Shown here piece after piece: positions 7,655 through 35,498 of a stretch of 64,000 nt of DNA. Below the pieces are notes generated by a model that ran no database searches, was not told the origin of the DNA, and saw only the letters and a list, made by a program, of their open reading frames with translations. Positions within the stretch are counted from its first letter, which is position 1, and each line of letters opens with the position of its first letter. This stretch comes from Eubacteriales bacterium (GTDB lineage Bacteria; Bacillota; Clostridia; Oscillospirales; CAG-272): NCBI GenBank assembly GCA_045659745.1, contig JAZRCL010000089.1:2252-66251 (forward strand). Direction: 5' to 3'. The translations under genes were made by a program, and so were the position numbers.

Positions 7655-7932
7655 AAGAAGGCCATACCAGCCGGGGAGGTAGCGGAGCCCTGAACCTGAA
7701 ATCCGCTATACAGGGGTGGATCCCGCATTTGAGGGCGGACCCTTTACGAATGAGGCATATCTGTTGTGTTGATGGGCGGGTCTTGCGCAATCAAGAGCTG
7801 TGAATCATGTCAGATGGGGAACCAAGCAGCATTAAGCGGTAAACTTGATGTGCCGTGAGGTTGCCTGCCTTGAGCAGGAGGTATGCAGATCGCGTGGAGG
7901 GAAAACACGAATTTGCGGTGTATGGTCTTCTT
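7655..7932 (+). ncRNA. ffs: Signal recognition particle RNA, long Bacillus-type (scRNA) with Alu domain
   Basis: Blocks match my recollection of B. subtilis scRNA: ggggaggtagcgg.gccctg.acctg.aatccgct, ctgcgcaat, catgtcag..gg.a..aagcagcattaag, and gtgccg..ggttgcctg. A terminal helix pairs 7655-7667 with 7920-7932. The position upstream of dnaX is the conserved Firmicute synteny. Confidence 0.85.
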
Positions 7933-7984
7933 TTGTGGCAGAGTTGCGTTTTTTATTGGAATTTTGTTATCATATTGAAAGGAG

Positions 7985-9625
7985 TTGAATATTTTGCATC
8001 AGGCTTTATACAGAAAGTGGAGACCTGCGACCTTTGACGAGGTTTGCGGTCAGGAGCATATTACCTCTATACTCAAATACGAAATTGACAACTCCAAATT
8101 TTCGCACGCGTACCTGTTTTGCGGCTCGCGCGGAACGGGTAAGACAACGTGCGCAAAAATTCTCGCAAAGGCGGTCAACTGTCTTTCTCCCGTAAACGGA
8201 AACCCTTGCGGCAGATGCGAGGCGTGTCTTTCGGTTGAGGCGGGAACGGCGACTGATGTGCTTGAAATGGACGCCGCTTCAAACAACGGCGTTGACAACA
8301 TACGAGACATTCGTGACGAGGTAGTCTACGCGCCATCGTCGCTCAAATACAGAGTGTACATTATCGACGAGGTACACATGCTTTCCACAAGCGCGTTCAA
8401 CGCGCTTCTCAAAACACTGGAAGAGCCGCCCGAGCACGTTGTATTCATACTTGCGACCACCGAGCTTCACAAGCTCCCCGCGACTATAATCTCGCGTTGC
8501 CAGAGATTTGACTTCCGCAGAATAGCGACGGACGTGCTCAAAAACCGCCTTATGTATATTGCCTCGCAGGAGGGAATAGACTTGTGCGAGAATGCGGCAG
8601 TAATGCTATCTAAACAGGCGCAGGGTGGCATGAGAGATGCGATAAGTCTTTTGGAGCTTTGCGCGGGAAGTCGCGAAAAGATAACTCCCGAGCTTGTAAA
8701 TATTACAGTCGGCTCAAGCGGACGCGAGGAGATGCTCCGCGTGTGTGAGGCGGTCTGCGATAAGGATTACGAGACAATATTTGCATCGGTCAACGAGGTA
8801 GTGCAGTCCTCGCGCGACATAACTGTTTTCTGGCAGGATCTTATATCTGTTTACAGAGATCTTCTCATAATCAAGACCGCTAAAAACGCGGCGGATTATC
8901 TTGATCTTACGGATAGTGAGATAAAAACCATGACGGGCGTTGCGGCAAAATTCTCACGCGAGCAGCTTTCATATCACTGCTCAATGCTTGAGGACGCCTT
9001 GTTCTCAATGCTCAAGGCGAACTCTATACGCAGAATTGTTGCGGAGCTGACGCTTGTTAAGATGTGCGACAGCAGTCTTTCCACGTCAAATGAGTCCTTG
9101 CTTGCGCGCATAGCGGCGATTGAAAATAAGCTTGTGGGAGCGGATATACAATTCAGGGCAGAGCCCATCCAGGACAAGCCAGCAGAGGATCAGTCTGTGC
9201 CTAAAAAAGCAAGACGCGTTGTGCAGAATGATGACGACGAAATGTTCAAGTCCGACGCGCCGATGCCTATTTTTCAAAAGCCCGCCCAACTTCAAAAGAG
9301 CGGCGATGGCGTGAGAAGACTAAAGCCTATGAAGAACAGGGCAGAGGCGCTTGACAAGCTGACCGACACAAATTCTATGGTAGCATCCTTTTATAAGGTC
9401 GCCAAATGGTATTTGTCAGACGATGGAAAAATAGTTTTGAAATTCCCCGCAAAATATTCGGCGGATAACGCAAAGCGCTTTGACGTCAGCGGTGAATTTT
9501 TAAGAGTTATAAACGCCGTATCGGGCGCAAAATACAGTGCTTCGGATATTCTTTATGAGTCCGAGGACATAAAGGTCGAGTCGTCTGTAATAGACGAGAT
9601 ACTCGACGCAGCAAATCAAGAATAA
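7985..9625 (+). CDS. dnaX: DNA polymerase III subunit gamma/tau
   Basis: It has YRKWRP, Walker A GSRGTGKTT, a zinc module CGRCEAC, and DEVHML. The true start may be the TTG at 7994, which lies 9 nt after the RBS aaaggag. Confidence 0.95.
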   Translation: MNILHQALYRKWRPATFDEVCGQEHITSILKYEIDNSKFSHAYLFCGSRGTGKTTCAKILAKAVNCLSPVNGNPCGRCEACLSVEAGTATDVLEMDAASNNGVDNIRDIRDEVVYAPSSLKYRVYIIDEVHMLSTSAFNALLKTLEEPPEHVVFILATTELHKLPATIISRCQRFDFRRIATDVLKNRLMYIASQEGIDLCENAAVMLSKQAQGGMRDAISLLELCAGSREKITPELVNITVGSSGREEMLRVCEAVCDKDYETIFASVNEVVQSSRDITVFWQDLISVYRDLLIIKTAKNAADYLDLTDSEIKTMTGVAAKFSREQLSYHCSMLEDALFSMLKANSIRRIVAELTLVKMCDSSLSTSNESLLARIAAIENKLVGADIQFRAEPIQDKPAEDQSVPKKARRVVQNDDDEMFKSDAPMPIFQKPAQLQKSGDGVRRLKPMKNRAEALDKLTDTNSMVASFYKVAKWYLSDDGKIVLKFPAKYSADNAKRFDVSGEFLRVINAVSGAKYSASDILYESEDIKVESSVIDEILDAANQE

Positions 9626-33024: not shown

Positions 33025-33825
33025 GTGAATATGCTTTTTGCGACCGACGGAGTCGTCACGCGCGTTAGTGACGCTACGGGAAGCGACAAATTTTTGAATA
33101 TAATCACCCCTAACCGCGGTCGAATTGGGGTGCTTGTAAAGGGATCTCGCTCGCCCGAAAGCAAGACCGCGTCGCTCTCGCAGTTGTTTACATACGGGAA
33201 CTTTGAAATATACGAAAAGAACGGAATGTATTGGCTGCGCGGAGGAATGGTGCTTGACCCGTTTTACAGTCTTTCGGAGGATATTGCGCGTATTGCGGCG
33301 GCGACTTATATGTGCGAGGTTGCAAACGAGCTTACCGATGAGTCCGACGAGTGTGAGGACATACTCCGACTGCTGCTCAATTCAATGTATTTGCTTGGCA
33401 AGGGTAAGAAAAAAATCTCGCTTGTCAAGGCAACCTTTGAGCTTCGCGCTATGGCGCTTTCCGGATATATGCCCGACGTGTCCTGTTGCAAATACTGCAA
33501 ATCGGTTATTGCCGATAATATGTATCTTGACGTGCTCGGCGGACGTATAATGTGCGCGGATTGCTTTAAGGAGCGTGGGGATAAGGTGAAAAACATCTCC
33601 CGCGATTTTGAGGATGTAAGGGAAGCGAGTGTTATTTGTCCTATGACATCGTCGGTAGTTGTTGCACTTAAATACGTGCTGAGCGCTCCGCCCGAAAAGG
33701 CATTTTCGTTTGACATCAAGGACGACGGGGAGCTTGAAATGCTTGCAAAGCTTGCCGAAACCTACGTCACCTCGCACCTTGGCAGAAGCTTTGATTCACT
33801 TGATTTTTACCATGCGGTGAAATGA
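33025..33825 (+). CDS. recO: DNA repair protein RecO
   Basis: 266 aa. It has an OB-fold N-terminus and the zinc motif CCKYC...CADC, and sits in the era-recO synteny. The start could instead be the ATG at 33031. Confidence 0.9.
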   Translation: MNMLFATDGVVTRVSDATGSDKFLNIITPNRGRIGVLVKGSRSPESKTASLSQLFTYGNFEIYEKNGMYWLRGGMVLDPFYSLSEDIARIAAATYMCEVANELTDESDECEDILRLLLNSMYLLGKGKKKISLVKATFELRAMALSGYMPDVSCCKYCKSVIADNMYLDVLGGRIMCADCFKERGDKVKNISRDFEDVREASVICPMTSSVVVALKYVLSAPPEKAFSFDIKDDGELEMLAKLAETYVTSHLGRSFDSLDFYHAVK

Positions 33826-33864
33826 AAAGGCTCATTTTTATTGAAAATAAACAACCGAAAAACT

Positions 33865-33939
33865 GTAGGGCGGGGGCTTGCTCCCGCCGAAAAGAGAATT
33901 TCGTTTTGATGAAACGGCGGGAGTAAACCCCCGCCCTAC
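33865..33939. repeat. REPIN-like inverted doublet of a GTAG-headed 25-nt palindromic unit
   Basis: gtagggcgggggcttgctcccgccg (33865-33889) faces its inverted copy cggcgggagtaaacccccgccctac (33915-33939), which matches 23/25. Each unit is itself GTAG plus an 8-bp hairpin. Together they form a hairpin of about 21 bp. Confidence 0.75.
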
Positions 33940-34047
33940 ATCTCCATTATGTATTTGCAACAAAAGGGCGAACCCGACGGAAAAACGGAATGATAAATAA
34001 GAATTTGACGAAAAGTAAAATCAATCGACGGCGAAAGGAGTTATCTT

Positions 34048-34545
34048 ATGGAACAATATATTTATGAAAATATAACAGGGATTTCGTGTCCAGTTGGTGA
34101 GTTTAGCGTATGTTTTGGGAAGAGTAAAATTCCTTTCAGTATTCGGAAAAACAGCTACGATATTCCGTATTATGATATTACCACAGAGACCAACTATGCT
34201 TTGGATATAGACATCAATCTTTTGGAAATAAACAAACAATACAATGTTGTATTTTCCGAGGGCGGTTTGCGTTTTCAATGCTCGGATGAACACACAAAAT
34301 CGCTTACTAACACTATTGGCAAGTGGTCTGTAGGTATTGGTTCGTTTGATATGAACGATGACTGTTTCCATCAAGACGAGCAATACAAAGGATATGACGT
34401 GTGGCAATCTGAAGACAATTTTGGTTTTTCCTTTGTTCTTTTAGATAGAACGATAGAAAAGATTACTTTTCTCATTGCGTGGATTGAAAATGTACCAAAT
34501 ATAAACATCGATTACGAAGATGCTTTAGGTTTTTGGCTTACATAA
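34048..34545 (+). CDS. Hypothetical cytoplasmic protein (orphan, AT-rich)
   Basis: 165 aa. It has RBS aaaggag and its own terminator, with no TM segment and no signal peptide. I recognise no motif. Confidence 0.55.
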   Translation: MEQYIYENITGISCPVGEFSVCFGKSKIPFSIRKNSYDIPYYDITTETNYALDIDINLLEINKQYNVVFSEGGLRFQCSDEHTKSLTNTIGKWSVGIGSFDMNDDCFHQDEQYKGYDVWQSEDNFGFSFVLLDRTIEKITFLIAWIENVPNINIDYEDALGFWLT

Positions 34546-34574
34546 ACAAATTCCAATTTGTCAAACAGAGTGAA

Positions 34575-34618
34575 AACCCCGACAGACTAAAAAATCTGTC
34601 GGGGTTAATTATTTGTTT
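34575..34618 (+). terminator. Rho-independent terminator of the orphan ORF
   Basis: Stem aaccccgacaga/tctgtcggggtt followed by a T-rich tract. Confidence 0.7.
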
Positions 34619-34619
34619 G

Positions 34620-34644
34620 CGGCGGGAGCAAGCCCCCGCCCTAC
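34620..34644. repeat. REP-like singlet, perfect inverted copy of 33865-33889
   Basis: cggcgggagcaagcccccgccctac is the exact 25/25 reverse complement of 33865-33889. Confidence 0.75.
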
Positions 34645-34657
34645 GTTATCTGATTTA

Positions 34658-35131
34658 TTATCTTCTTCTGCGGCGTCTTTTGCCTGAGCTTGATAAGGAT
34701 TTTGCTCCCAAAAATGAGCCTGCTGCACAACAGAGAATGAGAAGCCCTCGCAATGCAAAAAACCAGAGAGTCGAGAGCGAGCCCGCGTTGGTTGAGGGAA
34801 GCAGGGGATATAGCACCATAGAAACCACGATGTTCATAAGGGCAAATATCACACCGCAGAGCACGGGACTGCCGCGGTATAATTTACAGCTCATAAATCC
34901 CCCGAAAATCGCGCTAGGGAAGCACAAAAATGACGCGATGGGGAGCAAAAATCCCTCGGGGTCGGGTCTTGTGAGCGCAAAAACCGCAAGAATACTTAAC
35001 ATTAAAACAGCCGCTGCAAATGATACCAGCAGTCCGCAGGTGCATGCCCTGATTGCGGTAATAAGAGATACGTCGTTTTCATTTTCACTATGTCTGCCGC
35101 GGTGCGCGGAATGTTTTCTTTTTGTGTCCAT
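34658..35131 (-). CDS. Small polytopic membrane protein (TIGR04086/YrzE-like) with poly-Arg tail
   Basis: 157 aa with 4 TM segments and a C-terminal RRRRRR. Its position downstream of yajC matches my recollection for TIGR04086 proteins in Clostridia. Confidence 0.55.
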   Translation of the reverse strand: MDTKRKHSAHRGRHSENENDVSLITAIRACTCGLLVSFAAAVLMLSILAVFALTRPDPEGFLLPIASFLCFPSAIFGGFMSCKLYRGSPVLCGVIFALMNIVVSMVLYPLLPSTNAGSLSTLWFFALRGLLILCCAAGSFLGAKSLSSSGKRRRRRR

Positions 35132-35213: not shown

Positions 35214-35498
35214 TCAGTCGATGGAGTCCTCAGCCTTAACGTCAACGCGGCTTACAGAGCTCTTGAGAATACGGATCTTGGTGCAGTCACGGGAGGTCTC
35301 GATAACACAAGTCTCCTCCTTGATGCTTACAACCTTACCGATAATACCGCCGATAGTGGTGATCTCATCGCCTACCTGAAGGTTGGAAAGCATGTCCTTG
35401 GTCTGCTTTTCCTGCTTTTTGTTGGAACGCCACATAAAGAAGAACATAGCGCCTATTGCAAGTACCATTATCACCGTGGTGATTATTTCCATTGGCAT
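35214..35498 (-). CDS. yajC: Preprotein translocase subunit YajC
   Basis: 94 aa. One N-terminal TM helix is followed by Q.K....L..L..GD.V.T.GG..G.V. Confidence 0.9.
   Translation of the reverse strand: MPMEIITTVIMVLAIGAMFFFMWRSNKKQEKQTKDMLSNLQVGDEITTIGGIIGKVVSIKEETCVIETSRDCTKIRILKSSVSRVDVKAEDSID

Follow-up and report, generated by a model that had tools for sequence, protein, structure and literature searches.

A segment located behind the recO gene in a genome of the Clostridia lineage CAG-272 (Oscillospirales) is bounded by repetitive extragenic palindromic (REP) sequences and encloses a single AT-rich gene. It occupies positions 33865–34644 of the 64,000-nt stretch of DNA analyzed here (hereafter, the window; Eubacteriales bacterium, GCA_045659745.1, contig JAZRCL010000089.1). 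In this work we compared the segment with related loci of other genomes and conclude that it is very probably a REP-delimited fragment of a modular cassette, widespread among gut-type Clostridia of this family, tied to a REP-associated tyrosine transposase (RAYT) system whose gene is located outside the window, on contig C97 of the same genome. The genome (G000) is a 1.67-Mb assembly of 101 contigs (96% complete, 45.7% GC).

Three REP units are located behind recO

Three copies of the 25-nt unit GTAGGGCGGGGGCTTGCTCCCGCCG (REP1, REP2 and REP3) were found in the window, compared with none expected from 100 shuffles (Table 1). The first-pass annotation of this DNA described them as GTAG-headed REPs, the left two as a REPIN-like doublet and the outer two as perfect copies, and our analysis agrees with it in all these points. 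The copies have 0, 2 and 0 mismatches, and the outer pair extends into a 29-nt inverted repeat (97% complementary). The rough chance of finding three of the eight copies of the genome inside 0.8 kb is ~4e-5. As single-stranded DNA (ssDNA) the unit folds into GTAG followed by an 8-bp stem with a 4-nt loop (−7.5 kcal/mol), the structure of GTAG-type REPs, and the same units are present inside the cognate RAYT-like gene on C97. None of the three units in the window is followed by a T-run. The GC content of the bracketed segment is 33–38%, against 46–51% in the flanks.

The doublet formed by REP1 and REP2 folds as ssDNA into a single long hairpin (−30.2 kcal/mol, z = −8.3). It was matched over its whole length, with identity of 74–89%, in six other genomes (G010, G085, G003, G051, G045 and G090), the nearest relative being the doublet of G010:C35 (89%). 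An inverted REP pair with outward heads is thus conserved and dispersed as one unit, as REPINs are. The idea that the doublet is a recent collapse product of the RAYT gene was rejected, because the two units of the doublet differ in their loops (CTTG and TTTAC) and the doublet recurs in this form in other genomes, whereas both units of the RAYT gene have the CTTG loop.

The recO copy ends where a longer copy in another genus continues

A BLAST search with the left part of the segment revealed a similar locus on contig C22 of genome G051, which belongs to another genus and has other neighbor genes; the match ran past the doublet. The two loci share REP1 (100%), REP2 (96%) and REP3 (100%), together with the leader (61%) and trailer (73%) of the enclosed gene. 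The ORFs (open reading frames) themselves are unrelated (29% identity; 165 aa here, 93 aa there), and the outside flanks show 38 and 18% identity. The homology stops exactly at the outward GTAG heads. Beyond these REPs the G051 element goes on, with a promoter block and outer inverted repeats that the recO copy does not have. Since these outer parts lie outside the same REPs in G051:C22, the recO copy appears to be a sub-fragment ending at two outward-facing REPs.

The cassette of G051:C22 (locus L094, 48600–50700) contains its 93-aa orphan in DNA of 35–38% GC within a context of more than 60% GC, and is located directly after an immunity-type gene of the SUKH-1/SMI1-KNR4 family (Pfam 7e-17). 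We do not claim an immunity-protein function for the 165-aa protein; variable context and this SUKH-1 neighbor are all that would point to it.

The leader and trailer belong to a widespread module

The 74-nt trailer behind the ORF is a dispersed repeat: of 400 genomes of the family, 160 contain it, as do 58 of 97 genera, and its copies frequently lie close to the ends of contigs. Its second copy in G000 (C97:8971–9052) lies just behind the RAYT locus. The structure of the module was established from 14 aligned loci of 13 genomes (12 other genera and the C97 copy of G000), or 15 loci with the recO cassette. The 14 loci share the same ordered blocks but carry different ORFs. The module comprises: (i) a promoter block, that is, a hairpin followed by ATTTGTGTTATAATG; (ii) slot A, occupied by a RAYT-like gene, a ~230-nt GC-rich hairpin element or a REP doublet; (iii) a leader with blocks L1, L2 and L3; (iv) slot B with one or two variable small accessory genes; and (v) the 74-nt trailer with blocks T1–T3 and a terminator hairpin. 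Thus, the previously described orphan ORF does have a ribosome-binding site and a terminator of its own, but it is not a free orphan, as its leader and trailer are those of the module.

In most copies slot A contains the GC-rich hairpin element. It is filled by a REP doublet in G051:C22 and G010:C35. At least eight loci have a RAYT-like gene in this place, flanked by promoter block and leader: G000:C97 and seven or more loci from other genera, whose REPs are of other families. The slot-B genes code for lipoproteins, membrane proteins and a nucleotidyltransferase. Slot B is surrounded by a conserved inverted repeat formed by L3 (GATAAATAAGAATTTGAC) and T1 (CAAATTCCAATTTRTC, 34547–34566 in the window), whose blocks recur in the 14 other loci; this repeat may be a cassette junction. 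In the recO leader L3 has no mismatches to the family consensus, and positions 232–296 of the front consensus match this leader at 80% (BLAST). The DNA of the recO trailer has a folding energy of −19.1 kcal/mol (z = −6.9), and its hairpin, terminator-like in the terminator scan, is the only terminator that the scan found among these elements.

REPs of the respective genome were located no more than ~25 nt after the trailer in 8 of the 15 loci and shortly before the promoter block in 4 of them; in one locus (L134) the two flanking REPs are from different families. A different outer shell was observed in seven copies (L120, L121, L137, L142, L136, L134 and L138), with inverted double-foot REP doublets on both sides and a further inverted repeat with TTCTCATAAGGA / TCCTTATGAGAA. 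Partial pieces of the module (GC-rich slot-A element, promoter blocks) are present in G000 at C36:33223–33356 and C86:966–1787.

Two other interpretations of the module blocks were set aside. A structured RNA in the leader or trailer found no counterpart in Rfam, where no family matched any module block and the only matches were spurious ones of miRNA hairpins to REP doublets; besides, the conservation of L3 and T1 leaves too little variation for covariation to be seen. Integron gene cassettes fit poorly, the outer arms of the trailer (GTCAAAC / GTTTGCG) deviating by inspection from the attC cores (R'' RYYYAAC, R' GTTRRRY); the cassettes are solitary rather than arranged in arrays, and no search was made for intI.

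The genome contains a RAYT-like gene with the same REP units

A RAYT-like Y1 gene with the same units, of the kind for which the first-pass annotation proposed to search, is present in the genome. The gene on C97 (Table 1) was found by reading the context of a repeat pair, and it contains two perfect in-frame units encoding the peptides VGRGLAPA and AGASPRPT. A six-frame search of G000 with Pfam PF01797 had given no matches at E ≤ 1, a false negative, so that calls of "no Y1 transposase" made by such a screen are unreliable for this clade.

The encoded protein matches NCBIfam REP_Tyr_transpos (NF047646) at 3e-17 (62.9 bits) and the TnpA-REP of E. coli (PDB 4er8) at 5e-5, the latter alignment spanning both motifs, and on sequence grounds it can be regarded as a distant member of the RAYT/TnpA-REP family. 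Its HUH motif (MPNHIHAI) and tyrosine motif (KYIYENP) agree with those of TnpA-REP subclass 2.4, for which NH[IFV]H, YIxNNP and REPs inserted within the tnpA-REP genes have been described (Quentin, Siguier, Chandler and Fichant 2018; PMC6006769). In 24 RAYT homologues from the same bacterial family, each gene has a GTAG palindrome pair of its own at the same two positions, matching within the gene and differing between genes. The REPs are the presumed ssDNA substrates of the RAYT-like enzyme.

In some close homologues (proteins P0002–P0028) we observed in-frame tandem duplications exactly at the REP peptides (VGRGLAPA twice, NEAAGASPRP two to four times), and RAYT matches in many genomes are split at about residue 53 and at residues 100–112. 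These duplications and splits could be REP-driven rearrangements or assembly artefacts.

Complete modules are inserted into terminator loops

The complete module on C97 is located inside the loop of a host terminator hairpin, AAAACGCTTGCC-TTTT-GGCAAGCGTTTT. The same site is empty in G090, G085, G057 and G089, where only the intact terminator hairpin lies between the two host genes. In G275 and G073 (L115 and L128), too, the module copy has complementary host arms on its two sides. Four copies of the module (C97, G275, G073 and G051) end in 16–19-nt inverted repeats, TTCTTAGCGGAGAAAT / ATTTCTCCGCTAAGAA. In the sister species G085, whose housekeeping proteins are 95–96% identical to those of G000, a RAYT with 80% identity occupies another site, which suggests that the module is mobile or exchanged on a short time scale. 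The proposal that the module blocks are regulatory sequences of vertically inherited genes is so far contradicted by the empty sites.

The recO spacer differs among close relatives

The segment had been placed between recO and yajC. Its left neighbor is indeed recO, but on the right it adjoins a convergent DUF3792-like gene, behind which yajC follows (Table 1). Orthologues of RecO are 95% identical in G090 and G085 and 86% in G089, and the DUF3792-like gene adjoins recO in these three genomes and in G057. The first-pass annotation suggested looking for an empty site in relatives, and such a site was found in G090, G089 and G057, where nothing but a short terminator hairpin separates the recO stop codon from the convergent DUF3792-like gene. 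G085 (locus L067, contig C22) contains a different insert of ~180 bp, which by eye, unaligned, looks like a reversed GC-rich slot-A element. Among the relatives compared, ~0.83 kb (33826–34654) is specific to G000. The recO spacer is an insertion hotspot, with three states among four close relatives.

The 39-nt left flank is absent from G090 and G089, which have the terminator hairpin there, and is 38% identical to the flank of G051:C22. On the right, a possible remnant of the terminator arm can be seen by eye (ATCTGATTT-ATTATCT in G000, TCTGTGATTT...ATTATCT in G090).

Table 1. Features of the recO locus (positions in the window) and of the C97 module
Feature	Position	Strand	Description
recO, left host gene	33025–33825	+	Pfam RecO_N 5.6e-14, RecO_C 2.3e-21
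Left flank	33826–33864		39 nt; without counterpart in relatives or G051 copy
REP doublet, REPIN-like	33865–33939		75 nt; REP1, 25-nt spacer, REP2
REP1	33865–33889	+	GTAGGGCGGGGGCTTGCTCCCGCCG, 0 mismatches; GTAG head outward (left)
REP2	33915–33939	-	GTAGGGCGGGGGCTTGCTCCCGCCG, 2 mismatches, both in loop region; TTTAC loop variant
Truncated module leader	33940–34047	+	Diverged L2; L3 (GATAAATAAGAATTTGAC, 33992–34009); ribosome-binding site AAAGGAG
Slot-B cargo, 165-aa protein	34048–34545	+	Predicted all-beta
Module trailer	34546–34619	+	74 nt; T1 (CAAATTCCAATTTGTCAAAC) and long imperfect hairpin with terminator CCCCGACAGA/TCTGTCGGGG
Terminator	34575–34606		
REP3	34620–34644	-	GTAGGGCGGGGGCTTGCTCCCGCCG, 0 mismatches; GTAG head outward (right)
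DUF3792-like membrane protein gene, right host gene	34658–35131	-	Pfam DUF3792 4.7e-06, below curated cut-off; convergent with recO
yajC	35214–35498	-	Pfam YajC 4e-25
Complete module, 1.19 kb	G000:C97:~7900–9090 (L001:~1400–2590)		Promoter block, RAYT, leader, 121-aa lipoprotein gene, trailer
RAYT-like Y1/HUH gene, 172 aa	G000:C97:7988–8506 (L001:1489–2007)		Two perfect in-frame REP units; outside the window

Distribution of the REP family

The unit is not confined to recO: a genome-wide count, as proposed by the first-pass annotation, gave eight good copies of the GTAGGGCGGGGGCTTGCTCCCGCCG type at five loci of G000. Two of them are located at or near contig ends (C44:1–25 and C85:27–51), and the true copy number is probably above eight. 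The identical 25-mer occurs in 11 to 53 or more copies in G090, G085, G045, G051, G003 and G012, relatives in which the RAYT-like gene is present, and in no copies in G057, which also has no RAYT-like gene.

The gene enclosed by the REPs

The ORF at 34048–34545 is the only one in the bracketed segment. The promoter scan found no plus-strand promoter-like site between REP2 and the ORF, and the cassette thus has its own ribosome-binding site and terminator and no evident promoter. At present the ORF probably depends for its expression on transcripts that read through from recO.

For the 165-aa protein 74 homologues were found, all of them from metagenome-assembled genomes of Clostridia or from metagenomes; no homologue was found in 150 other genomes of the family, and no record with exactly the same sequence was found elsewhere. 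Structure prediction, another step proposed earlier, gave a confident AlphaFold2 model of an all-beta domain (pLDDT 92.8, pTM 0.89) but no known relative: Pfam, NCBIfam and PADLOC contained no sequence family related to it, and PDB and BFVD no related fold (best E 0.3 and 0.01, respectively; TM below 0.4). An exact-match scan of the genome contigs found no second trailer-REP3 junction.

The closest homologue (87% identity) is one of three genes of an AT-rich array on a metagenome contig (L087:1–1788), and its neighbors on both sides code for small membrane proteins. The array ends with the same terminator hairpin, the contig stopping 10 nt later, and a T1-like motif also separates its consecutive ORFs. 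Another genome (L076:2400–4100) has a homologue around which a different palindrome, GGGCGGTTTGA...TCAAATCGTCC with a T-run behind it, occurs three times; these palindromes look like terminators reused between small cassettes.

Origin of the recO insert

The fragment would have been lodged in the convergent-terminator spacer between recO and the DUF3792-like gene as a piece that begins with a REP doublet of the slot-A type, includes L2/L3, the cargo and the trailer, and ends with the REP behind the trailer. On balance, we favor the view that the REPs served as ends of the event that installed it, by an enzyme or by homology. In the former case RAYT would cut and join DNA at the two outward-facing REPs, the product being a giant REPIN whose loop contains a gene; in the latter, RecA-type recombination would use the 25–29-nt REP identities with a REP or REPIN already present at the site. 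That RAYT-driven transposition specifically installed the fragment seems to us rather unlikely. It is likewise doubtful, and proposed here tentatively, that the RAYT-bearing module is an active mobile element which inserts in single-stranded terminator loops and transports passenger genes in its second slot, and that pairs of outward REPs within or next to it act as alternative ends, between which RAYT could excise sub-fragments and insert them again; the recO cassette would then be such a giant REPIN.

A number of observations weigh against movement of the gene between REP ends. Compared with G090, the indel is longer than the unit between the outer REPs, with 39 nt unmatched on the left and ~10 nt on the right, and is therefore not a clean cut-and-paste footprint. 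G000 contains no second copy of the cassette or of the ORF that we could find, and movement was not observed; a single copy and an oversized indel are not what a cargo transposon with REP ends would leave. A bracket of same-family REPs with outward heads was found elsewhere only in G051:C22, and homologues of the ORF occur in unrelated contexts without these REPs. In G045 (C31:12981–13961, L097) the housekeeping gene tpiA, whose neighbors are pgk and a transporter gene, has a REP of the same family on either side, heads inward, which means that bracketing alone does not show mobilization; the bracket around the cargo gene, pointed out by the first-pass annotation, is real but is no proof that the gene was mobilized. 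One singleton REP (C62) is conserved at the orthologous site in four species and is ancestral there, and taken together with the tpiA bracket it indicates that REPs settle in spacers independently. The RAYT-like protein falls below the curated cut-offs (62.9 versus 80 bits for NF047646; 18 versus 23 for Pfam Y1_Tnp PF01797), and to our knowledge transposition by a RAYT in vivo has never been demonstrated.

Such independent settling could in principle account for the whole locus: the gene with its leader and trailer would have reached the recO spacer in some other way, and the REPs and REPIN would have been inserted separately on its two sides without ever moving it. Besides the tpiA bracket and the stably inherited C62 singleton, this is consistent with the different REP families, each genome's own, next to the module ends in many genera, a pattern that fits targeting of the terminal hairpins of the module; with the two unlike REPs flanking L134; and with the literature, in which REPs are described as favoring the spacers of convergent or unidirectional genes (PMC3733652). 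What it leaves unexplained is why the promoter block and outer repeats were lost when everything between the REPs was kept, why the homology with G051:C22 stops exactly at both GTAG heads, and why the left REP is a doublet of the slot-A type, as within the modules of G051 and G010. We consider it improbable. A scenario to which we give a still lower probability is decay in place, in which a complete module like that of G051:C22 was inserted into the recO terminator loop and then lost its promoter block, outer repeats and host arms by deletions that ended at REPs or were stimulated by them. Full modules do insert into terminator loops, the spacer is a hotspot that in G085 holds what by eye is a lone GC-rich slot-A element, and the duplications and breaks exactly at the REPs of RAYT-gene homologues suggest that REPs are prone to recombination; the possible right terminator-arm remnant, seen by eye, points the same way. 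However, at least two separate deletions would be required, both with an end precisely at a REP head; outside the REPs neither a left terminator arm nor a remnant of the module is recognizable, and the unmatched 39-nt left flank has no explanation.

The REPs may also be unrelated to mobility, having been recruited by host selection around an acquired gene as functional RNA or DNA elements (terminators, mRNA stabilizers or insulators). The doublet, a very stable hairpin, does replace the lost terminator of recO, and REPs have been described as transcribed 3' elements (PMC3733652). However, the lack of a T-run after any of the three units and the terminator scan, which detects the trailer hairpin only, do not agree with such a role, nor do the identity of the units to those within the RAYT gene and the presence of the family across genomes, which tracks the RAYT gene. 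We regard this explanation as highly improbable and retain installation of the fragment by way of its REP ends as the favored reading.

Discussion

REPs, with their RAYT enzymes, belong to the most abundant repeats of bacteria, yet opinions still differ on how they spread, and the usual view of RAYTs is that of single, domesticated genes. As such, the REP/RAYT system is not new. With respect to the literature searched, three points are new: (i) the RAYT gene and AT-rich orphan genes are alternative passengers of one module; (ii) this module targets terminator loops; and (iii) one copy of it is truncated exactly at the REPs.

Among the systems closest to ours is the REPtron, or TnpA-REP, which is said to have been treated also by Ton-Hoang (2012) and Nunvar (2010). 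Its subclass 2.4 (RAYT group 4; PMC6006769) similarly combines GTAG-headed long REPs, a small Y1/HUH protein and in-frame REPs with a patchy distribution consistent with horizontal transfer. In contrast to it, the gene described here occupies a fixed slot of a larger module, with a second slot for cargo and discrete insertion into terminator loops; also, subclass 2.4 has been described mainly from Cyanobacteria and Bacteroidetes, and our protein is below the cut-offs and has FQ in place of the WQ motif. The first-pass annotation held that REP-type systems are much less documented in Clostridia-like genomes than in Proteobacteria. The layout as such has been published (subclass 2.4, PMC6006769); on the other hand, GTAG REPs have been listed only for Proteobacteria, Cyanobacteria, Chloroflexi and PVC, with Firmicutes unlisted (Di Nocera et al. 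2013, PMC3733652), and in the literature searched we found no paper joining REPIN, RAYT and Firmicutes.

The doublet behind recO is like REPINs in that two inverted REPs with outward heads are conserved and dispersed as one unit. It differs from them in a very low copy number in G000, with one free doublet, and in that the outer pair encloses 730 nt including a protein gene. REPINs were reportedly described as hairpin-forming REP doublets by Bertels and Rainey in 2011, and we know of no REPIN in which a REP pair encloses a protein gene.

TIRtrons (TIRYT; Di Nocera et al. 2013, PMC3733652) are RAYT-like genes flanked by long terminal inverted repeats, for which insertion into terminator loops was not reported. 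The copies of C97, G275, G073 and G051 resemble them in their 16–19-nt terminal inverted repeats, and the C97 copy is TIRtron-like also in its RAYT-like gene and in the site that is empty in four relatives. Unlike TIRtrons, the modules carry in addition GTAG REPs, a scaffold of promoter block, leader and trailer, and passenger genes, and the recO fragment has no terminal repeats of the TIRtron type.

Conserved ends, variable passengers and versions with and without a transposase are shared by the module with mobile insertion cassettes and with palindrome-associated elements of the IS200/IS605 kind that carry passenger genes, both of them non-autonomous and moved in trans. It differs from them in its layered ends (inverted repeats, REPs and the inner L3/T1 repeat) and in the candidate enzyme, a RAYT, a type of enzyme usually regarded as domesticated. 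The IS3-family elements IS1397 and ISKpn1 are said to target REPs and insert into the loop of the extragenic palindrome, whereas the module described here is inserted into ordinary intrinsic terminators and has REPs of its own.

Even if the REPs are not ends, the locus is a clear case of REPs, terminators and small accessory genes piling up at one hotspot. If they do act as ends, this would provide a tractable natural system for RAYT-driven DNA movement and would explain why these genomes have so many AT-rich islets of a single gene behind their housekeeping genes. Should the module prove to be active, this RAYT clade would be a working transposase and not a domesticated one, and with REPs as alternative ends it would represent the first REP/RAYT system that moves protein-coding cargo.

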